This document shows, piece by piece, positions 1,652 through 38,329 of a DNA stretch of 40,590 nt; positions within the stretch are counted from its first letter, which is position 1; every line of letters starts with the position of its first letter. Position numbers and translations under genes: made by a program. Below the pieces are notes generated by a model, which saw only the letters and a program-made list of their open reading frames with translations, did not search any database and had not been told where the DNA came from. Source of the DNA: a virus (taxonomy: Duplodnaviria > Caudoviricetes); IMG/VR virus record IMGVR_UViG_3300024999_000209, positions 1 through 40,590 of that record, one strand, 5' to 3'.

Positions 1652-3133
1652 TTATATTGCCGCTACTATATCCTTTATTAACAGGCTTCTGACCATAAAC
1701 TTGTCAGCTACACCGTTGCTGTATAATCCTATTTGAATGGTTTCAAATCTTTTATTTGGCCTAAATATTGCTTTTGCAACACCAGAAGCCGCCCAGTTTT
1801 TCTCTCCCCAGTTGCCTTCTCCCCAGATAAGATCATCGGCTCCGGTTATGCTAAATTCTTTTTCAGTGTAGGCTCCGTCTGATTCATTGTTATACCTGAC
1901 CCTAAACGTAAAGTTTGTTGTATTGAGCCTGTCTAGTCCTAGTAAAATTTCGGACACTTCTTTTTCCCAGTTAAGATAGCCAAAATGAAGAAAGGGCAGC
2001 AACATTAAATTTTCTATAGCCGTACCATTAAAAGTGTTTCCGTCGTCATCCTTGAGGACTTCCCCAGCAGTAGTTCCAATGTAAATATCGCCATCATATA
2101 AAAAAACAGTGGTTATATTGTGTGGGTATTTTTTTAAAAACCAACGTTTTTTTGTAAAACAATATATCCAGCAATATTTAATATAATCATCACCGGAATA
2201 CGTTACATAACATCTTAATTGATCTCTTTTGTGATACGGGATAAGCTTTACATTTTCAGGCAATACAAGATTTTCAAAGTCTTCATTTATATCGTCTGAA
2301 TATTCAGAATTAAGTTTTATTTCTCCTTCTTTTCCAAATGAACCTATGGCAAGTAAGTCATTGTCAAACATCCAATGCTCTGTTAAATAGTTAGCTGTTC
2401 CATTGGGCGAAGGCGAACCTACAGAGGCCGAAAACTGCCCCAATATCCATTCGTTTTGATCAGTGCCGCCCTGGATGTAATAAATTTTATCCTTCTTATA
2501 AATTAACAAAAGATCGTTCCACTCTATTAATGCTGTTATCGGAGTAGAATCGTTAAAGAAATTACTATTAGACCCGGCCCCATTAGCTCCTGTAGTCACC
2601 CAGTCTGTATTGTCCCCAAGGGTTGACCAGTAAAGAGTTGCACTTGTTGATGAACCCATAAAAAGCCTATTTTTCCATACAGTCATAGCCAAACCTCTTT
2701 GAGATGTTGTTCCCAAACTGGCTACTGACCACGTACTTCCGTTATATGTTAGTTTTTTGGGGTCGTTTGTACCGTCGTTTACTATTAAAGAGCCGCCCAT
2801 TTCGGCATAAGTAGTCTTAGCCGTAGTTGTAAGCCCTGTAGTTATTTCTGTAAAAGTCCCTGTGCCTACGTTAAAATGATAGGCTTTCCCATCGCTGGCA
2901 TTAACAACGCACACCTTTGCGCTTGCTGAATAATTGTACTCGGCTCCGCCCCTAATGATATAAGCGCCCACATCCCCCAAAAGTGTGGTACCTTTAGAAG
3001 TTCCAGTGCCTAATCCCCGATAAAATTCCACATTATAGCCGTCATAAAGACAGACTTCCTTTTTCGACTGCGGAAGACTATCGTCATTATCTGTATAAAT
3101 AATGCCGGTTATATTAGTGGTTTGAAAGTCCAT
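1652..3133 (-). CDS. Podovirus tail nozzle/stabilisation protein (P22 gp10 / T7 tubular B-like beta-propeller)
   Basis: 493 aa, beta-rich, WKNRLF..LYWS.LGD..DW motif; synteny after the adaptor. Confidence 0.7.
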   Translation of the reverse strand: MDFQTTNITGIIYTDNDDSLPQSKKEVCLYDGYNVEFYRGLGTGTSKGTTLLGDVGAYIIRGGAEYNYSASAKVCVVNASDGKAYHFNVGTGTFTEITTGLTTTAKTTYAEMGGSLIVNDGTNDPKKLTYNGSTWSVASLGTTSQRGLAMTVWKNRLFMGSSTSATLYWSTLGDNTDWVTTGANGAGSNSNFFNDSTPITALIEWNDLLLIYKKDKIYYIQGGTDQNEWILGQFSASVGSPSPNGTANYLTEHWMFDNDLLAIGSFGKEGEIKLNSEYSDDINEDFENLVLPENVKLIPYHKRDQLRCYVTYSGDDYIKYCWIYCFTKKRWFLKKYPHNITTVFLYDGDIYIGTTAGEVLKDDDGNTFNGTAIENLMLLPFLHFGYLNWEKEVSEILLGLDRLNTTNFTFRVRYNNESDGAYTEKEFSITGADDLIWGEGNWGEKNWAASGVAKAIFRPNKRFETIQIGLYSNGVADKFMVRSLLIKDIVAAI

Positions 3134-3145
3134 TTATTGTAATCC

Positions 3146-3177
3146 TGTGGTATAATTATTGGATGGGAGGATGGTTT
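3146..3177 (+). promoter_or_regulatory. Extended -10 promoter plus RBS block, copy 1
   Basis: TGTGGTATAATTATTGGATGGGAGGATGGTTT; 31/32 identical to 7640-7671. Confidence 0.8.
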
Positions 3178-3178
3178 G

Positions 3179-3418
3179 ATGAATATTATAAATCCTGAAA
3201 ATGTTTATAGTTTTTTAACTAAAACAGTTGAAAAAATAAGGGAAGACAAACAAAAATTTCAAGAATTAAATAAGGCTATGAATGCAGAAGGCTATCAGGC
3301 TTGGATTACCCCTAAGGGTACTTATTGGGCAAAGAAAGACGAAAAAGGCTTGGTTTTACATCCTATGTATGATGAAAAAACAGAGCAATTACTTAAACAG
3401 TTAACCGAGGTGCGGTGA
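3179..3418 (+). CDS. Antisense cassette protein 1 (ends LTEVR), unknown function
   Basis: ATG after GGGAGG; ends in the shared 20-bp junction. Confidence 0.75.
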   Translation: MNIINPENVYSFLTKTVEKIREDKQKFQELNKAMNAEGYQAWITPKGTYWAKKDEKGLVLHPMYDEKTEQLLKQLTEVR

Positions 3419-3420
3419 TG
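3401..3420 (+). repeat. Cassette junction TTAACCGAGGTGCGGTGATG, copy 1
   Basis: Identical to 7883-7902; variant at 8041-8058; contains SD GAGGTG and a TGATG stop/start. Confidence 0.9.
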
Positions 3421-3861
3421 GATCTTAATAGTCATTTTAATATTCTAGACAATACTTCCAAAGCAAAGGTTTTAATTTATAAATTAGATAGGATTTTGGG
3501 CAAAAAAGGATTTTGGCACTGGGAGGGACTAATTTTAAACAAAGGTGATTCTTGCCGTATTAATGATAATGGTGAAATAAAAACCCTAATTCTCAATCAG
3601 GAAAAAATTATTAAAGTTAAATTTGGAGATAGAGACTTTATTTCTTTAATTGATTCCATAATTTCCTTGGCTGATTTTGAATTTATAAACAAAAACATTG
3701 TGTTTAAAATAACAGAAATACAGGTTATAGAAAAAAAAATAATAATTAAAATTGTTTATGAGAACATTATAAATGCGATATGTGGTGAAGCTTATTTTAA
3801 AAAGGGCATAAAAGGGAGATCTCTAGAATTATCTGCCCGCCTGCCTGAAACTATCGATTAA
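3418..3861 (+). CDS. Antisense cassette protein 2, unknown function
   Basis: Coupled through TGATG; very AT-rich; 3' end overlaps the convergent adaptor gene by 33 nt. Confidence 0.65.
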   Translation: MDLNSHFNILDNTSKAKVLIYKLDRILGKKGFWHWEGLILNKGDSCRINDNGEIKTLILNQEKIIKVKFGDRDFISLIDSIISLADFEFINKNIVFKITEIQVIEKKIIIKIVYENIINAICGEAYFKKGIKGRSLELSARLPETID

Positions 3862-4755
3862 CATCCTGTTTGCGCTCTTGTTATTTCTTCCCACTACTAA
3901 AGAGGGGTAGGCGTCATCCCCGAACCCGTCAGAAGCTCGTAGGTCTTTTAGATAATCCTGGTATTTTCTCTCTAAAATTGCATATTTTTCATCCGGTCTA
4001 AAATTGCCACGATACGCCGCCGCTGCTCCGTACTCTATGGCCTTTATAAATCTATCAGGGATTAGTGTTATATCTGTTGAATCTGATAACGTATCCCTAG
4101 AAATATAAACAGGGTCGGCCTGTGCTAAAGTGTGGGTATAGGCTAAATTGCTGGACAAGGTTAAATAATTGCTTGCATTAAAAGAACTTATGCGGCCTTC
4201 TTCCCGACGGGCGGTGCCGCTGCCTATTAACACATACCCATTGGCTTCTGCTCCCGTTGTGGCAGCAATGTTTAATTGCGCCTGCGCGCTTGCGGAATCT
4301 GCATCTACAGAAGTAACTGCATAGGCGTAATAATTTGTCCTATATTTTATAGTAATGGTATAAGCAGCGTCGGGTGTGGGGTCAAGGATTAACTGATTGT
4401 TAAATACTGAATACCTGATAGGCGCGCCTGAGGTTAATACAGTCTGATCTAAAATACTATCCTGCACATAATAGAGTGGAGGCGTCCAGCTTGCACGCCT
4501 CACTCCATCAGCTAAGATATTTTTCAATTCTAAATCGCCAGGCAAGGAATACTCCCGTGTACCGCTGACTGTTGAAAGATCATAAGATCTTTCTAAAAAT
4601 GTCCAGTCATGGGTCTGGCAGATATCCCCTAATACATCAACAATGTATTTTTTTAACTCAGGATATGGCTCGGCCGTTGATGCAAATGTGCTGGGCTGGG
4701 TTTCCTTTGATAAAATACATACATTGTTTAATATTGTACTGTAATTAGTTGCCAT
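3829..4755 (-). CDS. Head-tail adaptor / tail tubular A-like protein with an inserted beta domain
   Basis: DWTFL..., GTREYSLP.D, G.P..Y.....L.PTPD..YTI.I.Y motifs of phage adaptor proteins. Confidence 0.7.
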   Translation of the reverse strand: MATNYSTILNNVCILSKETQPSTFASTAEPYPELKKYIVDVLGDICQTHDWTFLERSYDLSTVSGTREYSLPGDLELKNILADGVRRASWTPPLYYVQDSILDQTVLTSGAPIRYSVFNNQLILDPTPDAAYTITIKYRTNYYAYAVTSVDADSASAQAQLNIAATTGAEANGYVLIGSGTARREEGRISSFNASNYLTLSSNLAYTHTLAQADPVYISRDTLSDSTDITLIPDRFIKAIEYGAAAAYRGNFRPDEKYAILERKYQDYLKDLRASDGFGDDAYPSLVVGRNNKSANRMLIDSFRQAGR

Positions 4756-5132
4756 TATTCAGCATAATCCTCGTAATATAAGAATTTAATTCTGTAAGTA
4801 GTATCAGCGTTTATATTCTGAATACTGCATGACGATATTTCGCCCTTCCAAAACTGCTTTCTTATGTCATCTCTATTGGACAATTTGGCGTCGACCCCTA
4901 GCCCATTCATAAAAGATAGTTTTTTATTCCCTACATGAAAAACTTTCCACGCTGTTTTTTCCGAGAAAAGCTCTCCATCAGGGCACTTGTCTCCACGGGG
5001 AACTTTTTTAATATCTTTTATAGTAATCGTTTCCGGCATTTCGGATTCCGACTCTACAAGCTCGTCAAAGCCCTGCTCCTCCTTTTCGATGTCATCAATA
5101 AATCTGTCTTGTTCTTTTTTTAAAGTTGTCAT
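4755..5132 (-). CDS. Hypothetical protein downstream of the capsid gene
   Basis: 125 aa ORF with AAGGAGG RBS. Confidence 0.7.
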   Translation of the reverse strand: MTTLKKEQDRFIDDIEKEEQGFDELVESESEMPETITIKDIKKVPRGDKCPDGELFSEKTAWKVFHVGNKKLSFMNGLGVDAKLSNRDDIRKQFWKGEISSCSIQNINADTTYRIKFLYYEDYAE

Positions 5133-5144
5133 TTTTCCTCCTTT

Positions 5145-5171
5145 TAAAAGAGGGAGGGCTTAAGCCCTCCC
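5145..5171 (-). terminator. Intrinsic terminator after the major capsid gene
   Basis: GGGAGGGCT-TA-AGCCCTCCC hairpin followed by TCTTTT on the - strand. Confidence 0.7.
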
Positions 5172-5179
5172 ATTTACTA

Positions 5180-6043
5180 TTACGCAGCAAATATAATTTG
5201 CCCTAGTCTTGATGTATTAATTACCTTGGAGCCAAAACCATCAAGAAGCCTGATAGCTGTATCGAAGCTCCCTTCAAGTCTGATAGTCTCCATCTTTTTA
5301 ATCTGATGCGCGAATGTAATAGATTTTTTAGTTCCTGCCAGGCAGTAGTATTTTGAGTTTACTGCTACAAGGTTATTCAATTCATAAATTTCAAACCCTG
5401 ACACCATTCCGACCATTCCTTTTTCTACTGCTTTTTCTCCTAATTTTTCAAGGTTTAAAAACTCAGGCATTTGCACAAGTTTTTCCGTAACCTCTGGAGG
5501 TACTACAATCCAAGGAGTGCCTGCGGCTTTATGAAAAGCTTTTGATCTTGCCATTTTCCTTTTCAGGATGGGGAAAGCCTCGTACATTGTGTCTTTATCA
5601 AGTACAATACCATCACCATCTGAACCGCCGCCGCCTACGTCCTGTAGGTCAACTTGGTTTGCTGTTGGGACGTCAGCATAATGAGTCTGTAAATGAGTAT
5701 CAACGGTTAGTCTTCTTGTTTCCCTTACTTCTTCAATATGAGATTCAAGAACTTTAACATCAGATTGAGCCTCGGTAATATCGTCACATTTGAATGCGGC
5801 GTATTTAAACTGGTCAATAAGTAATGATGTTTTTGTTGGGGATAGGTTTTCATAAGTAATAGACCCTGCATAAGTTCCTTGTGCCACAGTGCCAGGTGTT
5901 CTTATAAACACTGTATCGGTTTTCTTGGCATCACCTTCATAGTCAGTATTTACAAGTTTCAACATTGTGGAATCGTTATAAAGGTTAAAGTCAAGTTTTG
6001 TACTCCATTTTTCCGGTATAAAATTATAAGTTGTGCTTGCCAT
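5180..6043 (-). CDS. Major capsid protein (HK97 fold, P22 coat-like)
   Basis: FIPEKWS..L, NTDYEGD...DTV.I, L.IDQ.KY..F..DD, G.V.GF.IY motifs. Confidence 0.85.
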   Translation of the reverse strand: MASTTYNFIPEKWSTKLDFNLYNDSTMLKLVNTDYEGDAKKTDTVFIRTPGTVAQGTYAGSITYENLSPTKTSLLIDQFKYAAFKCDDITEAQSDVKVLESHIEEVRETRRLTVDTHLQTHYADVPTANQVDLQDVGGGGSDGDGIVLDKDTMYEAFPILKRKMARSKAFHKAAGTPWIVVPPEVTEKLVQMPEFLNLEKLGEKAVEKGMVGMVSGFEIYELNNLVAVNSKYYCLAGTKKSITFAHQIKKMETIRLEGSFDTAIRLLDGFGSKVINTSRLGQIIFAA

Positions 6044-6075
6044 TTTTGTTTTTCCTTTCGTAAATTTTGCATACT

Positions 6076-6104
6076 AAATAAGCCCCTGTCGTTAGGGGCA
6101 TTTT
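6076..6104. terminator. Terminator-like hairpin directly upstream of the capsid gene
   Basis: GCCCCT-6nt-AGGGGC with T-rich tails on both strands. Confidence 0.6.
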
Positions 6105-6121
6105 GTTTATAAATTACTTAA

Positions 6122-6550
6122 TTAGTCTCTTTGACCTGTCTTAACTACGTTAATATAGAAACTGCCACCTGTTAGAGCTGCGCCAGCTATTGTAAGTGTC
6201 AAATCAAGAGCTGTTGTTCCGGTGTTTTTAACAAAGCTTGCTGCTGTATCAACAGGAGTACACGCCCCAAAGGTCCCAGTAAATACTGCGTTATCGTAGG
6301 CAGTTGCTGTTAAAACATCATTTGCCTGTGAAACATGTAAGGCTATTGTTGCGGAACCACCCGAAGTCGGGTTATCTCCAACTACTTCTTCAACATATGC
6401 CTGTTTAATATATTCCCCAGGCAGCAAGAAGCCGTCTGCTATTTCAATAGCTCCTATAGCTCCACCGTGAAGGTCAAAATCATATAAGAATCTATGAGTT
6501 GTTACCGGGATGGCAACGTTCATTTGTGTGGTTTGTGATTGTGTTGACAT
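6122..6550 (-). CDS. Putative capsid decoration/cement protein
   Basis: 142 aa, beta-rich (TSGGSATIAL, LTIAGAALTGG); between scaffold and capsid. Confidence 0.55.
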   Translation of the reverse strand: MSTQSQTTQMNVAIPVTTHRFLYDFDLHGGAIGAIEIADGFLLPGEYIKQAYVEEVVGDNPTSGGSATIALHVSQANDVLTATAYDNAVFTGTFGACTPVDTAASFVKNTGTTALDLTLTIAGAALTGGSFYINVVKTGQRD

Positions 6551-6563
6551 TGCGTTTTCTCCT

Positions 6564-7586
6564 TTATTTTAATAATCCTTTTGCGTCCATTTCGTCGATT
6601 GTTTTTTGGTTTTTTGCATACCATGCGCGATCTTTAGATGCTTTTACTTGGATTTCTTTCCAAGTACGAGGGATTCCGGCATAAGCACTGGTTGTTTTGG
6701 CTCCCGTTGTTATTTGTGGAAGTTTATTAACATCCTCATTATGCGCGGCGGCTGCTTCTTCGGTGTCAGCTTCCCTTTTCTTTCTTGCATGATAGTATGC
6801 ATCGTATGATTTAAGGATGTTCTTTGTCAGTTCTGGTTCATACGGCATAACGTTTTTGTAAAACTCGATCACTTGCTTATTTTCGGGGACACTAGCGGAT
6901 TCAGTCATAAATGATTCATAACCTTTATTGCTTTTTTCCCGTTCTCTTTTAGCTTTTTCAGAAGCAATTTTCTTAGCAGCTTCTGGATAATTTCTATCCA
7001 CGGTTAAGGACTTTGCAGCATATTCCTGTATGAAATAATCTTTTAACTGCTCTGCATTTTCTTGCGTAGGACTTACAGTATATTGATTGCCTTGAGCGTC
7101 AGTGTATGTAAATGACTGCCCCTGTCTTATAAATTCCATTATTTGGGCTTTTTCAGATACAAACTGTTGCTTAAGTCCTTGATATACTGTTTTTAATTCT
7201 GTGTCCTGTGACTCTAATACAGTATCCTTTTGCTTTTCTTCTGCTTCTTTCTCTTTCGCTTCTTTTTCAGCAAGTCGTTGAGCTTTTTCATGAGCCATTT
7301 TCTCAGAGTTATAGCTTGATTTAATCAAGCGTTTTTCTGCGTCACTTAAGCTATCAGGCATTCCTTCGGGGTAGTATTTTTTAATATGTTCCTCAGTTAC
7401 GCCTAATTCTTTAACTACTGGATTTGGCTCCGGTTTTGTTTCTGCTGTTGATTCTGTACTTTCTGCCGGTTCGGCTTTAGCGGGCTCTGCACTTTGTGAG
7501 TTGTCTGCTTCCGCAGGCTCCAATGCTGAGTTGTCCGCTGGTGTAGCGTCCACGGTTGTAGGCGGTACGTTTAGTTCGTCTGACAT
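6564..7586 (-). CDS. Putative capsid scaffolding protein
   Basis: Acidic disordered N-terminus, helical/coiled-coil body, between portal and capsid. Confidence 0.7.
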   Translation of the reverse strand: MSDELNVPPTTVDATPADNSALEPAEADNSQSAEPAKAEPAESTESTAETKPEPNPVVKELGVTEEHIKKYYPEGMPDSLSDAEKRLIKSSYNSEKMAHEKAQRLAEKEAKEKEAEEKQKDTVLESQDTELKTVYQGLKQQFVSEKAQIMEFIRQGQSFTYTDAQGNQYTVSPTQENAEQLKDYFIQEYAAKSLTVDRNYPEAAKKIASEKAKREREKSNKGYESFMTESASVPENKQVIEFYKNVMPYEPELTKNILKSYDAYYHARKKREADTEEAAAAHNEDVNKLPQITTGAKTTSAYAGIPRTWKEIQVKASKDRAWYAKNQKTIDEMDAKGLLK

Positions 7587-7639
7587 GGTTACTCCTTATT
7601 TATTTTTATGCTTAATATTCCCTATTTTTTCAGGGCGAT

Positions 7640-7671
7640 TGTGGTATAATTATTGAATGGGAGGATGGTTT
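7640..7671 (+). promoter_or_regulatory. Extended -10 promoter plus RBS block, copy 2
   Basis: TGTGGTATAATTATTGAATGGGAGGATGGTTT. Confidence 0.8.
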
Positions 7672-7672
7672 T

Positions 7673-7900
7673 ATGATTGAAGATATAAATAAAGCTTTGA
7701 GTAAAATAAAAGTTGAGTTTGGTTTACAAAATATAGAATGTTTTATTCCCGATCATTCTTTTTCTTATCACTTTAAAATAGGCGATAAGATTATTGATAC
7801 AGAAATAGTAAGTGCTTTTTGGCTCTTACATTTTTTAAATTGTCAAAGATGTAAGACAAATTTTCTAACCAGCATAAAAATTTTAACCGAGGTGCGGTGA
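7673..7900 (+). CDS. Antisense cassette protein 3 (ends LTEVR), unknown function
   Basis: ATG 33 nt after the block start, the same offset as 3179. Confidence 0.75.
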   Translation: MIEDINKALSKIKVEFGLQNIECFIPDHSFSYHFKIGDKIIDTEIVSAFWLLHFLNCQRCKTNFLTSIKILTEVR

Positions 7901-7902
7901 TG
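7883..7902 (+). repeat. Cassette junction, copy 2
   Basis: TTAACCGAGGTGCGGTGATG, 20/20 with 3401-3420. Confidence 0.9.
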
Positions 7903-8058
7903 AAGTTTAAAAGATATTTTGATATTAACTTACCCTTAACAGACCCAAGAAAAAGTAAATACTGGGATTATTGCTCATTAGATTATAAAATGTTTGCATT
8001 GGACTATTTCAAAATTCCAAGCATAAAAAGAATTAGCAAGTTAACTGAGGTGCGGTAA
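7900..8058 (+). CDS. Antisense cassette protein 4, 52 aa (ends LTEVR; not in the ORF track)
   Basis: MKFKRYFDINLPLTDPRKSKYWDYCSLDYKMFALDYFKIPSIKRISKLTEVR, translated by hand. Confidence 0.7.
   Translation: MKFKRYFDINLPLTDPRKSKYWDYCSLDYKMFALDYFKIPSIKRISKLTEVR
8041..8058 (+). repeat. Cassette junction, copy 3 (terminal variant)
   Basis: TTAACTGAGGTGCGGTAA, 16/18 match; TAA replaces TGATG. Confidence 0.85.
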
Positions 8059-8059
8059 A

Positions 8060-8173
8060 CTATTTACCCATGTTCTTTTTTATTTGTTTTTGCTTCATCA
8101 TCATTTTCTCTTTAGGCATCATCGGCGTTTTGTCATTTGATTTTTGAGCTTTTTTAGCTGCTTTCTTTTTCAT
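8060..8173 (-). CDS. 37-aa Lys/Met-rich basic peptide
   Basis: MKKKAAKKAQKSNDKTPMMPKEKMMMKQKQIKKNMGK with G-rich RBS. Confidence 0.6.
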   Translation of the reverse strand: MKKKAAKKAQKSNDKTPMMPKEKMMMKQKQIKKNMGK

Positions 8174-8184
8174 AATATTCCCCT

Positions 8185-8385
8185 TTATTTGTTTTTAAAT
8201 TTTTCAATTTCATCATCAATAATATTAAATACCTTGTTCATGCCTGCTAAATAGTCCATAGCATCAGAATCCTTGCGGATATGATCCAGCTGGTATTTCT
8301 GGCATTGCTCCCGGAGGAACTTCCATCCCTCCAACTGGATTAATTCTTGGTATCGGAGCGCCCTGTACCTGCCCTGGCTGTCCAT
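8185..8385 (-). CDS. Small post-portal protein (Bbp19-like position)
   Basis: GGAGG RBS inside the portal gene; EGWKFL..Y..G motif. Confidence 0.6.
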   Translation of the reverse strand: MDSQGRYRALRYQELIQLEGWKFLREQCQKYQLDHIRKDSDAMDYLAGMNKVFNIIDDEIEKFKNK

Positions 8386-10129
8386 TTATCATACCTCCCA
8401 TTTTATTTTGTGTTTCCTGTTTCATTGTTTCAATTAATTGGTCTGCATTATCCATTCCCATTTGCTCAAGCAACCATTTAAGAAGTTCCAACATACCCCC
8501 GCCAAGCTCCGCTTGTATAGGCGGAAGCATCAAGAACTCTTTAAGAATAGACATGTTTTCATTGAGTTTTTGCTTTCTGTCTAGCGTGCTGAGAGCATCG
8601 CCGTATGAATACGAATAATTGCCCAGCCAGTCTTCTTCTTTAATCATATCGAAGCCAAACCCGCCAGTCTTTGCAGTTCTTACAGGCACAGGCTCAATGC
8701 GATACCCTGCGTTTAATTCAGCTATATCTTCAATATCTTTTATAATAAGCTCGCGGGTGAAGTCTTTAACCTCGTTAAGCATTCTTTTCTCTTGTCCGGA
8801 GCCTACCATTGACATTTCAGTTGCAGTCCTACCGCCACTTACGTCTTGCCCTAGCATATTATCAAATATACCTGTTGCGGATTCTATTTCTTGGTTGCTT
8901 ATAGGCATAAGATTTACTATGGCTGCTAATCCTGGAGCATAATCCATGAATTCAATATCGCCGTCAGTTAGGGAATCTTTTTTTAGGCCAATATACATGC
9001 CCCGCTTTATTTCAATTTGTTTTTCTGACAGTAATCCCTCTGGCCCAAAGCTTGGCCTGTCTACCACAAGCCCAGCGCAGCGCTGCGCATCCTGAAAAAG
9101 TTCAGAATTGTATTGATTAAGGGGAACTGCGCAATCAAACATACTTATTGACCGGCCTGTCTTTGGGTTGTCGAGAAATGACGACCTTCTAATAGGGCAG
9201 AATGGGTACGGGTTAGGCTCAAACCGTATAATCTTTTTGTTTCCAGCAAGTACAATATAATAGTCAGTCAACACGGTGCCATCATCAAGTTTTAGGCTTC
9301 CCCAAAAATGCAAAAGAACTATTTTGCCATCTTGTGTGCTGATATTCTCATCAGCAACAGGGGTAGAGTTTTCAGTTTCTTTCTCATGCCCGGATTGATT
9401 TTCTAAGGACTCTAATTCTTCATAATTACTATATGCCTGATTTTGTTTTATCTCTTCAAAAGTAGCTAGCGTAGGGTATATTTTAGGACAGTTTACCCAA
9501 TCATGCTTTTGGTTTTTGTCAAATACAAATTTGTGCGGGTCTATTACCGTTATTTTGCAACCCTCATACGCCGGAACCTCAACAATTTTAAATTTTTCTT
9601 TGTTTGACTCCATTCCAACCAAAGAAGCTATTTTATTGTACTGCTTTTCTAAGAAGCTTAATTTTCTGCGGACTTTCTTGGTTTTCTTTTCCCAGGTAAT
9701 ATACCTGACTACTTCACCTTTTAGTGCTCGATAAAAAAGGTATTGCGCTATTATCTGGTAGTAATCCATATTTTTAAGTTCTTTTGTAAGTAAAGATTTT
9801 TGTTTACTTACAGACTTTGAGCTTAAAAAATCCTCGCCCTGTACATCAAAAGATGCTTCCGGACTTGGATAAACATTTGATACCATGTGAGCTATATAAG
9901 TCATAAACCGTTTATAGATGCCGGGCATAATATACGCTTTATCATCTTTTACTTCGTCAGTGGCGGTATCAATAAATATGTGCTTAAATAACTCGTCAAA
10001 CTTATTAACGTGAGGCTGTAAGTCTTCCATCCATTGAGTATAATGAGTGGTAATCCAAGGCACTAGCTTGCTTTCCAACTCGTTATTAAGTTCTATTATA
10101 TTTTGCTCTTGTATCAGCTCGTTAGGCAT
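8264..10129 (-). CDS. Portal protein (podovirus type)
   Basis: 621 aa, I.VIDP..F.FD, IESATG, RTATE motifs; Gln/Pro/Met-rich tail. Confidence 0.85.
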   Translation of the reverse strand: MPNELIQEQNIIELNNELESKLVPWITTHYTQWMEDLQPHVNKFDELFKHIFIDTATDEVKDDKAYIMPGIYKRFMTYIAHMVSNVYPSPEASFDVQGEDFLSSKSVSKQKSLLTKELKNMDYYQIIAQYLFYRALKGEVVRYITWEKKTKKVRRKLSFLEKQYNKIASLVGMESNKEKFKIVEVPAYEGCKITVIDPHKFVFDKNQKHDWVNCPKIYPTLATFEEIKQNQAYSNYEELESLENQSGHEKETENSTPVADENISTQDGKIVLLHFWGSLKLDDGTVLTDYYIVLAGNKKIIRFEPNPYPFCPIRRSSFLDNPKTGRSISMFDCAVPLNQYNSELFQDAQRCAGLVVDRPSFGPEGLLSEKQIEIKRGMYIGLKKDSLTDGDIEFMDYAPGLAAIVNLMPISNQEIESATGIFDNMLGQDVSGGRTATEMSMVGSGQEKRMLNEVKDFTRELIIKDIEDIAELNAGYRIEPVPVRTAKTGGFGFDMIKEEDWLGNYSYSYGDALSTLDRKQKLNENMSILKEFLMLPPIQAELGGGMLELLKWLLEQMGMDNADQLIETMKQETQNKMGGMINGQPGQVQGAPIPRINPVGGMEVPPGAMPEIPAGSYPQGF

Positions 10130-22816: not shown

Positions 22817-23069
22817 GATTGCCTCCTTTATGCTTATTCTCAAATTCCCATCCAGTACAAATATGATTTCCGTCTTTATCAAGACGGGGAGTTGTTGAGC
22901 CAAACCATCCAGATTTTGTATAGTGACATCCTGTAGCGTTATCTATATACAAACCTAAACCACTTCTTGCAAACCGGCTTTTGTCGGTGCTATCAGTAGG
23001 GGTAAACAAATTAAAGATAAAGCTCAAAATCAAAAAAATAACGATAAAAGTAATAATTTTATCAAGCAT
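22794..23069 (-). CDS. Membrane-anchored DUF6440-like protein
   Basis: N-terminal TM; D..TGC.Y......TPRLD.DG motif. Confidence 0.6.
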   Translation of the reverse strand: MLDKIITFIVIFLILSFIFNLFTPTDSTDKSRFARSGLGLYIDNATGCHYTKSGWFGSTTPRLDKDGNHICTGWEFENKHKGGNHDSIKQI

Positions 23070-23512
23070 TACATTTTCCTCCGTGCATATTCTGCTATTA
23101 ATAAAGCCTCTGCCCTGCCGTCCTGCGCGTTTCTTATTTCCTCTTTAGGAAATAGCTGCCGGGCGGTCTGCACAGATAGCCCTTTTGTGCTGTTTAGATT
23201 AAATTCTTTTTTCCAGACCTGAGGGCGAATTTCCTGGAAAGGGATTTTTAAAGCTGTTAAAATTCCTTTATATGCCCCATAGCCAGTACCATAATTAAAC
23301 ATTGAGGTTACACCCTGTTTCGGCATTGCCTGAGCTTTTTCTATCAAGCAAAATGCGCTATCTTTGAATGCTTCAAGCTCCTCGCTTATTGCCTGTAAAT
23401 CAATTTCTTTTTCGCACAGCGGGCAATCAAAAACTAATACAATTCCTTTTTTGTCCAGTATGGCTATTGCACCCTTTTTCCCCGGGTCAATTCCTATAAA
23501 ATACTTGCTCAC
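23069..23512 (-). CDS. RuvC-like Holliday junction resolvase
   Basis: IGIDPGKKGAIA, IE, QGVTSMFNYG, PQVWKK, DGRAEALLIA; GTG start after AGGAGG. Confidence 0.85.
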   Translation of the reverse strand: MSKYFIGIDPGKKGAIAILDKKGIVLVFDCPLCEKEIDLQAISEELEAFKDSAFCLIEKAQAMPKQGVTSMFNYGTGYGAYKGILTALKIPFQEIRPQVWKKEFNLNSTKGLSVQTARQLFPKEEIRNAQDGRAEALLIAEYARRKM

Positions 23513-23784
23513 GACTCCCCCGCCTCCTGCACTAACTCTAAAAGGCAATACTCTTCATGGGTAAGCTTGCCTGTTTTCCGGCGTGGCCTGCTCGGCAAGC
23601 AAACACAAAAATCCTTATGTCGCCCGCAGTTCTGGCAATATACAACCTCTGCCGCTTGCATTAATGGTGTTGGCTCCTCGCCATAGGCTTGTTCCAAGTC
23701 TTTTTCATAAAGAAAATTACTTTTATGTATAGCTAAAGCTAAATCCTTTATAGTTTTAATCAGCTCTGATAAATCTTGACACAT
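23509..23784 (-). CDS. Hypothetical Cys-containing protein
   Basis: 91 aa ORF with RBS. Confidence 0.55.
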   Translation of the reverse strand: MCQDLSELIKTIKDLALAIHKSNFLYEKDLEQAYGEEPTPLMQAAEVVYCQNCGRHKDFCVCLPSRPRRKTGKLTHEEYCLLELVQEAGES

Positions 23785-23908: not shown

Positions 23909-24535
23909 TTAAAACGGGATTTCATCTATATCCTCTCCGGTCAAGTCGCTGTCCACTTGTGATCCATCAGTGCTATCTATCATTTTTTGAAAAGTCATTG
24001 AATTAGTTATTTTTTCCTGTAGCCATTCAGGGAAATCGGCAATTTTCTTTAAATCGTCAACATCAAAATCAAAAGATTTTAATTCATTTTCTACGGCTAT
24101 AGGTGTGTGTGTTTTACCTACAGGAAGAACATTGATAATATTCCAGGTTTTATCGTTTTTTGTTTCGTGGATTATCTGTATATTGCAGTCTTTCCCTAAA
24201 ATATTCTTTAAATTAAAAGCCTTTAATTCTTCCTCGGTGAAAGCTTTTCCCCTCCAAGAGTTTAAATCTTTTCTCAGGTTGGATTTTTCGCCCAAATTGG
24301 CAGTATAAGTTTTTCTTACTATTTGATTAAATTTCTTTTTTTCGCCGTCTTTTTCATATTCGATAACTATTTCGGGGATTTCCCATTCAAGTAAAACTTG
24401 ATTTTTGTACTTGGTAACGCCCTGATATTCTGTTTCCTGCTCTCCAAGGTCAACAACAGAAATACACTTAGCCTCATACAATCCCTCAGGGATTAATTTG
24501 TATTCCTTTTTTTCTTCTTTAATTGTAAGCGACAT
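23909..24535 (-). CDS. Phage ssDNA-binding-like protein (NGO0469-like family) with an acidic DEIPF tail
   Basis: PEG.Y.A.C..VVDLG.Q, SNLRKDL.SWRG..FT; C-terminal DIDEIPF. Confidence 0.7.
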   Translation of the reverse strand: MSLTIKEEKKEYKLIPEGLYEAKCISVVDLGEQETEYQGVTKYKNQVLLEWEIPEIVIEYEKDGEKKKFNQIVRKTYTANLGEKSNLRKDLNSWRGKAFTEEELKAFNLKNILGKDCNIQIIHETKNDKTWNIINVLPVGKTHTPIAVENELKSFDFDVDDLKKIADFPEWLQEKITNSMTFQKMIDSTDGSQVDSDLTGEDIDEIPF

Positions 24536-25582: not shown

Positions 25583-25999
25583 TTAATCACAAACTAAACT
25601 CTGAATATTAACCCCATCAAGCTTTTCCTGTTCAGTCAAATTGCATTCTGAACAATTGCCACTTAATCCTGAACAATCGCCCCTTAATCCTGAACAATCG
25701 CCCCATAATCTTGAACAATTGCCCCATAATTCTGAACAATCGCCCCATAATCTTGAACAATCGCCACTTAATTCTGAACAATTGCCACTTAATCCTGAAC
25801 AATTGCCACTTAATCTTGAACAATTGCCCCATAATCCTGAACAATTGCCACTTAATTCTGAACAATCGCCCCATAATCTTGAACAATCGCCACTTAATTC
25901 TGAACAATTGCCTAAATTTCCATTATCAACAATAGTTTTACTGCCATCAGTATTAATAATAAATAATTCTTTTTTGACTCTTTTTAGCGCCTTTTCCAT
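25583..25999 (-). CDS. Cys-ladder heptapeptide-repeat protein
   Basis: G[N/D]CS[E/R/G]L[S/W/R] x12 plus a partial unit; AAAGGA RBS. Confidence 0.8.
   Translation of the reverse strand: MEKALKRVKKELFIINTDGSKTIVDNGNLGNCSELSGDCSRLWGDCSELSGNCSGLWGNCSRLSGNCSGLSGNCSELSGDCSRLWGDCSELWGNCSRLWGDCSGLRGDCSGLSGNCSECNLTEQEKLDGVNIQSLVCD
25646..25912. repeat. 21-bp tandem repeat, about 12.7 units
   Basis: - strand consensus GGC RAT TGT TCA RRA TTA (AGT/TGG/AGG). Confidence 0.95.
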
Positions 26000-26181: not shown

Positions 26182-26361
26182 TTAAACAGATAACCTATAA
26201 GTTTGAAAGATAAAATCGATTAGTGGCTTGCTGGTAGAAGTGCCAGCTAGCACCTGGTGGACAAAAACCCTTGAACATCCGTATGCTCTGGCAATACCTG
26301 ACAGGGTAATACCGAGGTCTTTAAGTTCTTGTCTAATGTTAAGTAATTGTTTTTTAGTCAT
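26182..26361 (-). CDS. Cro/Ner-like HTH regulator, 59 aa (not in the ORF track)
   Basis: MTKKQLLNIRQELKDLGITLSGIARAYGCSRVFVHQVLAG...; divergent from the repressor. Confidence 0.8.
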   Translation of the reverse strand: MTKKQLLNIRQELKDLGITLSGIARAYGCSRVFVHQVLAGTSTSKPLIDFIFQTYRLSV

Positions 26362-26396
26362 GATTGATTTAATCTTTACTTTATTAACTTGATATA

Positions 26397-26426
26397 ATAG
26401 TAAACCAAACTTGACTTTCTGTCAAG
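26397..26426 (-). promoter_or_regulatory. Early lytic promoter overlapping a palindromic operator
   Basis: TTGACA-17-TACTAT on the - strand; CTTGAC-TTTCT-GTCAAG at 26410-26426. Confidence 0.75.
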
Positions 26427-26453
26427 CATTAAATTTACAATTCGTAAAGTACC

Positions 26454-26810
26454 ATGAAAATCCAACAAGCACACGAAAAATTAATAGAAATAAAATGTGT
26501 AAAAATCCCAGAGGGGGCGTTTACTGAGCCGCTGGGTATTACAAAACAAGCAGTAAGCCAAAGATTTAGAAAAAATAGCGAATTGACTGAAGGTCAACTT
26601 AAACAACTTGAAGAATATTTTCAGGTAAATTTATCCGAACCCACGCCCACCATCCATGATAAAAACGATATCCCTGATGAGCTGGGAATAACCGAAAACG
26701 ACTGGAATATGATAACTGATTTAGTTCTTGACCAGAGAGAGGTTTTCTTGCTTATGTGCAAGAAGCTTAAGTCTGACCCGCAGGCGGTCATTAAGTTTCT
26801 TTTTGGCTAA
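26454..26810 (+). CDS. CI-like HTH repressor without an S24 peptidase domain
   Basis: LGITKQAVSQR HTH; divergent from cro. Confidence 0.7.
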   Translation: MKIQQAHEKLIEIKCVKIPEGAFTEPLGITKQAVSQRFRKNSELTEGQLKQLEEYFQVNLSEPTPTIHDKNDIPDELGITENDWNMITDLVLDQREVFLLMCKKLKSDPQAVIKFLFG

Positions 26811-27274: not shown

Positions 27275-28066
27275 TTAATTCTTGTTTATTATTGCGGCAA
27301 TAAGTTTGCTTAAATCGCACTTATAGGTGCCGCTGGTAGTTATACAGTTAATTTCTACTACTTTGGGATAATAATTTCCCTTTATTAAGCATAAATCAAG
27401 GGTAAAATCTTTTAAATGCTTAACTTGTGTTGCAATCATTTTTGCATGGTTAATTATGTAATCTTCCGGTTCCTTTTCTTCCTGTTCTTCCCAAGAATAT
27501 GAGCTATAAGTTACAACCTCGTTATCAAACACCCAGAAGCGCCACTCATGAAGTATTTCTTTATGAGAGGACACCAAAACCAAACAATCTTCATTAGCAG
27601 GACTTAAGAATGATATTTCTTTATCCCATTCTTTTTTACTTACTGAAAACCCTGTAAACGTCTTAAATCCATTATCAGGCTTGATAAATAACTTATCTGA
27701 ATAATAAAGGTGTTTAAATATCTGGTTTTTAAACAAGGCTATCTTTAGAGCCCAAAAAGGCATAAATAAACAATCTTGGTTTAAATAATATTCAGGGAAA
27801 TACTTCATATAATGTGTAACATAAAAATCTAAAGGATTTGCGCCCATTCCAATTAAGCCTGAATGTCTTGCCCAGTTTAAAGGAACGAGTCCTCTTATAT
27901 TTTTTCTACCTATAAGCTGTTTTATGAGGCTTTCGTTTTTAGGCTCAAAATAGTGCCCCCTTATAATTTTAGGGTTCCAGCTTAGGCTTTGTATGATTTT
28001 ACTTGCTTCAAGCAAACTATCTTCACTATCAAAAATCCTACCATGTATTAAAAAATCACCGTTCAT
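27275..28066 (-). CDS. ATP-grasp protein (DUF4343 / R2K-like)
   Basis: LFIKPD..KTFTG, EWRFWV, FTLD, VVEIN...TSG.Y. Confidence 0.8.
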   Translation of the reverse strand: MNGDFLIHGRIFDSEDSLLEASKIIQSLSWNPKIIRGHYFEPKNESLIKQLIGRKNIRGLVPLNWARHSGLIGMGANPLDFYVTHYMKYFPEYYLNQDCLFMPFWALKIALFKNQIFKHLYYSDKLFIKPDNGFKTFTGFSVSKKEWDKEISFLSPANEDCLVLVSSHKEILHEWRFWVFDNEVVTYSSYSWEEQEEKEPEDYIINHAKMIATQVKHLKDFTLDLCLIKGNYYPKVVEINCITTSGTYKCDLSKLIAAIINKN

Positions 28067-29524: not shown

Positions 29525-29709
29525 TGCGCCTGCCTCCGGTTAGTCTACTTAACCCTAATAAGTGTTTTATTCTTAGCCTGCCTATTTAATTCAATGATAT
29601 ATTTTTTTAGCTCGCAAACCTGCTCGGCGGTTAAAGTTATTTTAGAACCTGGTTTAAAGTCACTGAATAAAAATAATAAAATTGAGTTAATCATCACGCC
29701 CTCCGCTGG

Positions 29710-30958: not shown

Positions 30959-31101
30959 GTGATAAAATAATATGTAAAACCTGTACACACAAAGACGAAA
31001 AAAGCAAAGAAAATGTTTGCTGGATGGACTTAACTCAGGACAAGAAAGAATGCCTGTTCTATTTAAAGGATGGTAAAAATATTCTTGAAGGTGTGGTATA
31101 A
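30955..31101 (+). CDS. 48-aa Cys-rich protein
   Basis: CKTC.H...C...C..Y; ATGA coupling. Confidence 0.55.
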   Translation: MSDKIICKTCTHKDEKSKENVCWMDLTQDKKECLFYLKDGKNILEGVV

Positions 31102-31152
31102 TAATTAAAGTTGACGGCCCAACGTTCTATAAAAACCACGATAGGTCCTAAG

Positions 31153-31215: not shown

Positions 31216-31268
31216 GTGTGCTATAATAATATTACTAAGCGGCCAGTTGCAACTGCGCCGCATTTTTG

Positions 31269-37882: not shown

Positions 37883-37934
37883 TTATTTATCTTTTTTGTG
37901 GTAAAGTGATTTATATTAAAATTTGAGGTGTGCT

Positions 37935-38057
37935 GTGGAATGGCATTATATTTTGTTTATATTTGCTGCTATTGCTTTTAACCAAAGCTTGTTTAAAGTA
38001 TTGGATAGCATAAACACTAAGTTATCTTTGATTTACAAAAAACTTGATGAGCAGTAA
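37935..38057 (+). CDS. 40-aa antisense cassette membrane peptide
   Basis: GTG after GAGGTG; upstream TGTGGTAAAGT extended -10; hydrophobic N-terminus. Confidence 0.5.
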   Translation: MEWHYILFIFAAIAFNQSLFKVLDSINTKLSLIYKKLDEQ

Positions 38058-38077
38058 GAATAAAGGAGTGTACGCCG

Positions 38078-38329
38078 ATGGAAGAAAAAGAGGGAAAAGG
38101 TTTATCAAAATACATTAATCCGCCTGATGAGTGGTTTCATTACCCGCAATTTGAAAGCGTAAACGGGTTCATGACTCATTTATTTTTTATAGGCTTTATG
38201 GTTTCAAATTTTAGCTACCCGGACTATAAATGGTATTGGCTTTGGGGTGGGTTTGCTTGGATTATTGGTTATTCTATATATGAAAAATTAAAAAATCAGG
38301 GTGATGCCGGGGCAGTCAATAAAGATTGA
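38078..38329 (+). CDS. Antisense cassette two-TM membrane protein
   Basis: AAGGAG RBS; two hydrophobic aromatic-rich segments. Confidence 0.65.
   Translation: MEEKEGKGLSKYINPPDEWFHYPQFESVNGFMTHLFFIGFMVSNFSYPDYKWYWLWGGFAWIIGYSIYEKLKNQGDAGAVNKD

Follow-up and report, generated by a model that had tools for sequence, protein, structure and literature searches.

Two gene islands in the genome of a tailed virus (Duplodnaviria; Caudoviricetes; IMG/VR record IMGVR_UViG_3300024999_000209, positions 1 to 40,590) hold unrelated open reading frames (ORFs) that replace one another between close relatives. The replacements take place around a promoter-like block, here called P, and around a joint of stop codon, Shine-Dalgarno (SD) sequence and start codon, here called J. 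The stretch analysed, 40,590 nucleotides in length and referred to as the window, is a complete 40.6-kb phage genome with a terminal overlap of 133 nt and a G+C (GC) content of 37.9%. Both islands, site A and site B, lie on the plus strand and face against a minus-strand virion operon. The reading towards which we lean, if only just, is that A and B are moron-like slots in which unrelated ORFs swap between P and J, with the signals likely acting as short crossover points for general recombination.

Exchange of unrelated ORFs at two sites

One close relative of the window (G000) was found, record G001, whose locus L003 covers both sites. Additionally, contigs of four metagenome runs, X3, X4 and X5 among them, were compared over positions 2500-9000. 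On the two sides of site B, L003 is 98.1% and 97.4% identical to the window. Between these flanks the window carries B1 (75 amino acids, 7673..7900, plus strand) and B2 (52 amino acids, 7900..8058, plus strand), neither of which belongs to a family. L003 instead has an unrelated ORF of 47 amino acids in place of B1 and an unrelated ORF of 68 amino acids with a hydrophobic C-terminal stretch in place of B2, placed behind a related P block, joined by a copy of J and closed by a decayed one. The L003 allele of site B is also present in X4, and both alleles are present in X5.

At site A the window carries A1 (79 amino acids, 3179..3418, plus strand) and A2 (147 amino acids, 3418..3861, plus strand). 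The site is empty in L003, where the adaptor gene runs straight into the next start, with which its stop overlaps, and likewise in contigs of X4 and X5 (joint 3131>3828). A third allele was found in one run only, on an 814-nt contig of X3 with a depth of 7 beside the window allele at a depth of 79. This contig is known in part, from alignment pieces and from the 30 letters flanking J on each side. Three of its pieces match the window, at 3132-3182, 3382-3420 and 3775-3943; between the first two, 244 different letters replace 199, and between the last two, 311 replace 354. It keeps P with 3 differences over 3132-3182, and its first ORF has 94 codons in the frame of A1. By hand translation, the 30 letters on either side of J are open and unlike the end of A1 or the starts of A2, B2 and the L003 ORFs. 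The last ORF of this allele is very likely P0007, a zinc-ribbon protein of 84 amino acids with two CxxC pairs; this assignment was inferred from at least 8 changes within 3775-3858, together with one L003-type base there and four more downstream, making 13 listed differences. Length arithmetic leaves room for a middle ORF of 48 codons coupled to P0007, and the allele may thus hold three ORFs.

In total three alleles are known at site A, one of them empty, and two at site B, where no empty allele was found. As different alleles occur within one run (two of site A in X3 and both of site B in X5), partners for exchange co-occur. The first-pass annotation, made from the window alone, had proposed that the cargo is swapped, and this was borne out: at both loci close relatives carry different cargo while P and J persist.

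The ORFs that replace each other are unrelated by sequence. Outside the 8 residues at their C-terminal ends, A1, B1 and B2 have no similarity (best E 0.6-1.8 against a database of 8 proteins), and among A1, A2, B1, B2 and the two L003 ORFs no pair aligns better than E 0.09 in the same database. The cargo ORFs form singleton clusters, and their GC content is 17-33%, compared to 39-43% for five virion genes. A common origin as diverged paralogues from one duplication is therefore highly improbable. The starts of A2 and B2 are 84% alike over 44 nt including J, and B1 and B2 share approximately 10 nt shortly upstream of J, as paralogues might; these shared stretches are AT-rich, and the lengths of the ORFs range from 47 to 147 amino acids. 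Constant cargo in relatives and paralogy of the ORFs, the two outcomes named in the first-pass annotation as counting against it, were thus both absent.

Structure and conservation of P and J

P was located by a pattern scan at 3146..3177 in site A and at 7640..7671 in site B, both on the plus strand. It comprises a predicted extended -10 element (TG-n-TATAAT) and a GGAGG ribosome-binding site (RBS). As first annotated, the two copies agree at 31/32 positions and are each followed by an ATG 33 nt after the start of the block. A 25-nt promoter pattern gave 2 matches in the window at 3 or fewer mismatches, where 0.00 were expected from 100 shuffles. Judged by sequence, P is a perfect extended -10 plus SD with no match to a -35 element, and we refer to it as promoter-like only. 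The corresponding block at site B of L003 agrees with that of the window at about 21/32 positions, a figure taken from the alignment. When the upstream regions of all ORF pairs in the window were compared (4,656 pairs), P (19/20) and J (17/20) ranked highest, if an artefact of overlapping frames and a further pair at 17/20 are disregarded.

J is found three times on the plus strand: J1 at 3401..3420, J2 at 7883..7902, identical to J1 over 20 nt, and the terminal J3 at 8041..8058. The 16-nt core has exactly these 3 matches, all with 0 mismatches, against 0.34 expected from shuffles at 3 mismatches. With the terminal overlap and a 21-bp tandem array set aside, no exact repeat in the genome is longer than the 20-mer common to 3401 and 7883; a third-order Markov control gave 0.03 such repeats per genome (30 runs). 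The joint holds stops in two of three frames, a GAGGTG Shine-Dalgarno and a TGATG stop/start overlap. Depending on the frame, an ORF entering J is read as LTEVR followed by a stop, stops immediately, or reads through into the next ATG. A1, B1 and B2 all end in LTEVR, and these apparently unrelated ORFs do share the junction exactly. Across the alleles J stands beside six unrelated upstream and four unrelated downstream ORFs, and B2 is flanked by two copies.

J3 ends in TAA, and no plus-strand gene follows it, as had been noted; beyond it lies the 3' end of a minus-strand ORF of 37 codons (8060-8173). The suggestion that this copy marks an empty slot did not hold up, since both site-B alleles end in a copy of J without a further gene and that copy has decayed in L003. 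At site A the closing junction is absent, and A2 overlaps the end of the minus-strand adaptor gene by 33 nt.

The first-pass annotation left open whether J is conserved as DNA or as peptide, and considered that LTEVR is a functional C-terminal tag, such as a degradation or targeting signal. Judging from the alleles, J is conserved as DNA. The 47-amino-acid ORF of L003 stops at a TAA inside J so that no LTEVR is made, and the one homologue of A1 (P0005, 67% identical) lacks the tail. Furthermore, all copies use one set of codons, for which genome codon use predicts about 0.2% (0.002) per copy; CGG, for example, accounts for 16 of the 180 arginine codons in 12 long genes. In favour of a tag, four of the six upstream ORFs read into the LTEVR frame, a fifth, from L003, ends in MTEMR, and the variable base of J falls on a silent threonine position. 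Given the ORFs without the tail and the fixed codon choice, we regard a tag as most improbable.

No secondary structure was apparent in the signals. The RNA fold was no better than that of shuffles in 7/7 segments (z -0.7 to +1.3; plus strand), a simple consensus scan gave no terminator match at P or J, and a search of Rfam over 2900-8400 gave 2 sub-threshold matches, neither of them on P or on the core of J. J does contain a small dyad, ACCG-5 nt-CGGT, which is broken in the terminal copy of L003. Such a dyad could be an operator for a phage repressor, and the genome has a divergent pair of cI/cro-like helix-turn-helix (HTH) genes at 26182-26810. That J has this role is hardly credible, as no further copy within 3 mismatches exists in the genome, including the region between the HTH pair, and J sits at the ends of ORFs.

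The site A island (3134..3828) is inserted where the adaptor gene ends and a virion gene begins with an overlap of stop and start. The former encodes a tail/adaptor protein of 308 amino acids (3829..4755, minus strand; phrog_6013) and the latter a virion protein of 493 amino acids with PHROG matches (1652..3133, minus strand). The insertion splits the stop/start overlap of these genes, and on the minus strand window positions 3134-3145 give the downstream virion gene a new SD-like AGGA; the sequence beside P thus works on both strands. Site B is flanked by a gene of 340 amino acids (6564..7586, minus strand), which has no family match and by position would encode the scaffolding protein. In a simple consensus scan, no terminator-like site was found behind island A from 3861 up to 5152 or behind island B from 8058 up to 8400. 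Transcripts from either island would therefore run antisense into virion genes.

Breakpoints and the route of exchange

Traces of crossover are found 0-19 nt upstream of J and, at the 3' end of site A, inside coding sequence. Upstream of J, A1 and the first ORF of the X3 allele have 19 nt in common, and these resemble the natural end of the A1 homologue P0005. A2 is likely a fusion, as its last 28 codons (3775-3861) belong to the P0007 gene. A search of 1.84 billion representatives with A2 returned only itself and P0007, and the latter shares just the last 30 residues of A2. As A2 has lost the first cysteine of the second CxxC pair of P0007, it looks like a fusion product with a breakpoint inside the gene. 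On this evidence the breakpoints lie at or near the signals and not at fixed bases, and the idea of fixed boundaries was given up.

The same kind of exchange is seen elsewhere in the genome. In the early region, the window and G001 form a mosaic in which many blocks of 30-160 nt are shared. Between the two genomes, 48 ORF pairs have at least 16/20 identical upstream bases, and 18 of these pairs were scored as unrelated. Nine of the 18 are syntenic replacements beginning at a shared RBS; of the other nine, two are J pairs, three are matches outside synteny, and four are artefacts or dubious ORFs. Site C (37897..38329, plus strand; counterpart L141 547-1344 in G001), a third antisense island, lies among tail genes and has no J. 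Here a promoter, an RBS and a GTG start are shared, followed by an ORF of 40 amino acids in the window and an unrelated one of 180 amino acids in G001; a homologous hydrophobic ORF of 76-83 amino acids then follows in both. Window 23069-23548 and L141 16258-16575 have the same RBS, behind which each genome carries a Holliday-junction resolvase of a different, unrelated family. One RBS region of G001 (L141 10029) looks like a hybrid of the neighbouring window RBS regions at 29694 and 29877, and hints that RBS linkers of the early region recombine with one another. By these comparisons, the pattern of a shared RBS with an unrelated gene is special to A and B only in part. What sets the two sites apart is that the same signals are reused at different places in one genome.

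In the reading we prefer, exchange between P and J by general recombination, the steps would be as follows. One island would have been copied from the other, or P later converted between them, as the P blocks of the window are closer to each other than the site-B blocks are between relatives. Rare recombination events at P and J, or close to them, would bring in new ORF bodies, of which those that keep the expression signals would survive. J suits such capture, since an incoming ORF meets a stop there in two of three frames, and an SD and a start are always in place for the ORF that follows. Once complete, an allele would pass from one co-occurring relative to another through homologous recombination in the flanking virion genes, which are 97-98% identical. 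The slots would be transcribed by the host RNA polymerase independently of late transcription, with the two ORFs translationally coupled, and the cargo, at a guess, would act like morons in late operons, by conditioning the host or by excluding competing phages.

Several points weigh against this reading. The boundaries are not fixed, as the X3 and A1 ORFs share the 19 nt 5' of J and A2 and the P0007 gene share their last 87 nt. The minimal lengths for efficient pairing are 23-27 bp for Red-beta and 31-34 bp for RecA according to an excerpt of PMC3945230, and J, 20 bp exact at best, is shorter than either. No cargo occurs in two slots among the 3 + 2 alleles, and neither a J2-J3 deletion of B2 nor a circle was seen in the contigs of 6 runs, assemblies of which drop rare forms. 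The terminal J has decayed in L003. The crossover itself is inferred from two full genomes and one contig known in part. Finally, there is no RecT, ERF or Rad52 match in either genome, and the one AAA_24 match is a DnaB helicase. In the usual place of an annealing recombinase, window 23909-24535 encodes a protein that models as an OB fold and matches NF046043 (NGO0469 family), and G001 has an unrelated protein of 267 amino acids (L141 14788-15591; phrog_10048); either could be an unrecognised annealing or single-stranded DNA-binding protein.

Many of these observations would also fit an explanation in which the repeats play no part. The island would have been duplicated and its ORF bodies replaced by illegitimate recombination, selection would have kept promoter, SD and stop, and the alleles would travel via the flanking virion genes alone. 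We take this to be a serious possibility, though we doubt it. It would account for crossover traces off the repeats (19 nt upstream of J and inside the P0007 gene), for the shortness of J and for the lack of a recognised annealing recombinase. It also agrees with site C and eight other places, where genes swap at a unique RBS with no internal repeat, and with the decay of the terminal J where its SD is useless. The same SD/start word stands before an ATG in an unrelated GC-rich viral contig, L007, and part of J is therefore a generic signal. Selection alone nevertheless has to account for the J copy that ends site B in both alleles with no gene behind it. It must also explain why P agrees at 31/32 positions between the two sites but only at about 21/32 between the site-B alleles, which points to sequence traffic between the repeats.

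Alternatively, J could be the core of a site-specific system, integron- or pdif-like, run by a host enzyme or an unrecognised phage enzyme, with ORF plus J as the mobile cassette. J follows each ORF as attC follows integron cassettes, it stands after six unrelated ORFs with B2 between two copies, and it holds the dyad. The dyad, though, is only 4 bp, is broken in the terminal copy of L003, and folds no better than shuffles. Tyrosine recombinases (PF00589; control 14/14) and serine recombinases or resolvases were each found in 0/2 genomes, as the first-pass annotation had expected in calling the system integrase-free; a host enzyme acting in trans is conceivable. The breakpoints are variable, no reordering was seen, and outside this lineage the viral collection gives no match to P and only unrelated contexts for J. 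We consider such a system very unlikely. A further proposal makes J a dedicated, minimal joint for gene capture, at which a host or unrecognised recombinase would always cross over, so that a phage without an integrase of its own could build coupled arrays of anti-competitor mini-genes; this, too, seems to us unlikely.

In the viral collection, P was found only in this phage and in L003, whereas J had 5 added loci, all in unrelated contexts. A 15-base pattern of J had approximately 470 estimated matches in 596 Gb of the genome collection, taxonomically scattered and at chance level, with at least 120 loci given a context check only. Beyond L003, capsid-based searches returned a 63% fragment that contains neither site, and 7 loci of 26-37% identity in which no comparable islands are present.

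Cargo, setting and comparison with known systems

The cargo was compared to PHROGs, Pfam, NCBIfam, PADLOC and PDB sequences, and nothing scored over a curated cut-off. The best match below cut-off was that of P0007 to the anti-sigma-F factor Fin (E 0.002-0.007). No further loci of A1 or P0007 were found in the viral collection. A1 models as helix-3 strands-helix with low confidence (pLDDT 67.5); fold searches gave no match at E<=0.001 and a best Z of 4.5, and the Atlas no usable match. The elements of this model follow each other in a HicA-like order, and HicA-type toxins have a dsRBD-like fold with a catalytic histidine. As a candidate HicA, A1 matched HicA chains only at E ~1, showed no histidine at the matching turn of the low-confidence model, and had no Pfam match.

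The minus strand carries terminase, portal, major capsid and short-tail type genes by PHROG matches, which makes the phage podophage-like. All six metagenome runs containing the stretch are from groundwater; three of them may be its source, and no RNA data set was among the runs listed as containing it. The HTH pair is present but neither complete genome has an integrase or resolvase match. A portal search for related annotated phages gave only one weak match. Other features of the two genomes include an R2K-clade ATP-grasp gene at window 27275-28066 (Pfam PF14243, PF18299; 97% conserved in G001) and an ORF of 138 amino acids at 25583-25999. The latter is made of about 12 tandem 21-bp repeats encoding a Cys-containing repeat of 7 residues, and is missing from G001 (alignment gap 26018-25587). 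Two further plus-strand extended -10 sites, at 31092-31102 and 31217-31227, have no obvious ORF directly behind them; the second, whose surrounding block is 99% conserved in G001, may be the promoter of a small RNA or an antisense RNA. G001 in turn has a unique antisense ORF of 250 amino acids without a PHROG match (L141 11819-12571), which by eye we take to resemble polysaccharide pyruvyl transferase and which presumably could be a moron that modifies the host surface.

Our literature search, which did not cover most subscription papers and supplements, found no prior description of such an array of stop/SD/start junctions, and gave only papers on promoter-early stem-loop (PeSL) cassettes, on morons and on hotspots. 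The nearest are the PeSL cassettes of the T4-type phages RB49 and phi1, the design of which their authors compare with integrons in the excerpts of Arbiol et al. 2010 (PMC2839356) and Comeau et al. 2014 (PMC4122927). In common with these, a repeated sigma-70-type promoter with SD and start (here two P copies, 31/32) precedes unrelated ORFans, and close relatives differ by replacement, insertion and deletion without an integrase. The T-even IP-locus elements cited with PeSLs are similar, as far as the excerpt of PMC2839356 goes. According to the same excerpts, PeSLs measure about 100 bp, contain a terminator stem-loop, number about 50 per genome, form mini-circles and are co-oriented with the early genes of a large lytic phage. 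The phage described here is a 40-kb podophage with 2 promoter blocks and 3 junctions of 16-32 bp, without a stem-loop and antisense in the virion operon, and its most reused unit is a promoterless stop/SD/start joint. The slots thus work like PeSL shuffling, but are not PeSLs, as they have no stem-loop and few copies.

Morons, as defined in excerpts of PMC3594210 and PMC3029335, provide a second comparison. Site A is extra DNA of lower GC content between genes that are contiguous in a relative, being empty in L003, X4 and X5. Each island has its own promoter-like block and lies on the opposite strand inside a late operon, as does Tab of Pseudomonas phage JBD26, which the excerpt of PMC10884400 places between terminase genes. 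Unlike morons, the islands showed no terminator directly behind them in the consensus scan, hold two or three coupled ORFs each and share sequence with one another. Morons are also genes that a repressed prophage expresses to the benefit of the host; in the present phage no integrase was found. Leaving the terminator aside, and with the promoter a predicted one, the slots would agree with the definition of a moron.

Lambdoid mosaicism offers another parallel: there, too, genes without relationship trade places at one map position between short intergenic stretches that are conserved, and the window and G001 show this at 9 other places. The Botstein linker model is summarised in the excerpt of PMC2839356, and that of PMC3029335 mentions 'short conserved boundary sequences' in lambdoid phages. 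What differs here is that a single genome also employs one boundary in several places.

Integrons consist of IntI, attI and attC cassettes, the attC site being about 55-140 bp with a folded bottom strand. The slots do have one upstream promoter-like block, a repeat after each ORF and unrelated cargo. The integron-like label of the first-pass annotation nevertheless had to be dropped: no integrase was found, the shared sequence is 16-20 bp with no attC-type hairpin, neither reordering nor circular cassettes were seen, and no cargo was found in two slots.

Acquisition of orphan genes by phages at gene boundaries, by short linker homology or by random joining plus selection, is an old open question. 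The mechanism discussed here resembles the described linker and PeSL shuffling, and the locus adds a clear case to a type of phage gene shuffling that is already known; here the swapping is shown, which is more than can be said of many similar cases. Relatives that co-occur have swapped alleles around shared signals of very short length, some breakpoints being clean and others off the boundary, and deeper sequencing of one site could therefore test both models. Variable defence hotspots at fixed positions have also been described, with a recombination route that is proposed but unproven in the excerpt of PMC9122126. From their position and a design like that of Tab in JBD26, we would put conditioning of the host or exclusion of competing phages first among roles for the cargo, a call that we regard as evenly balanced. 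At least nine orphan ORFs, all unrelated, come from these slots, whose position is one at which known genes for phage exclusion are located.

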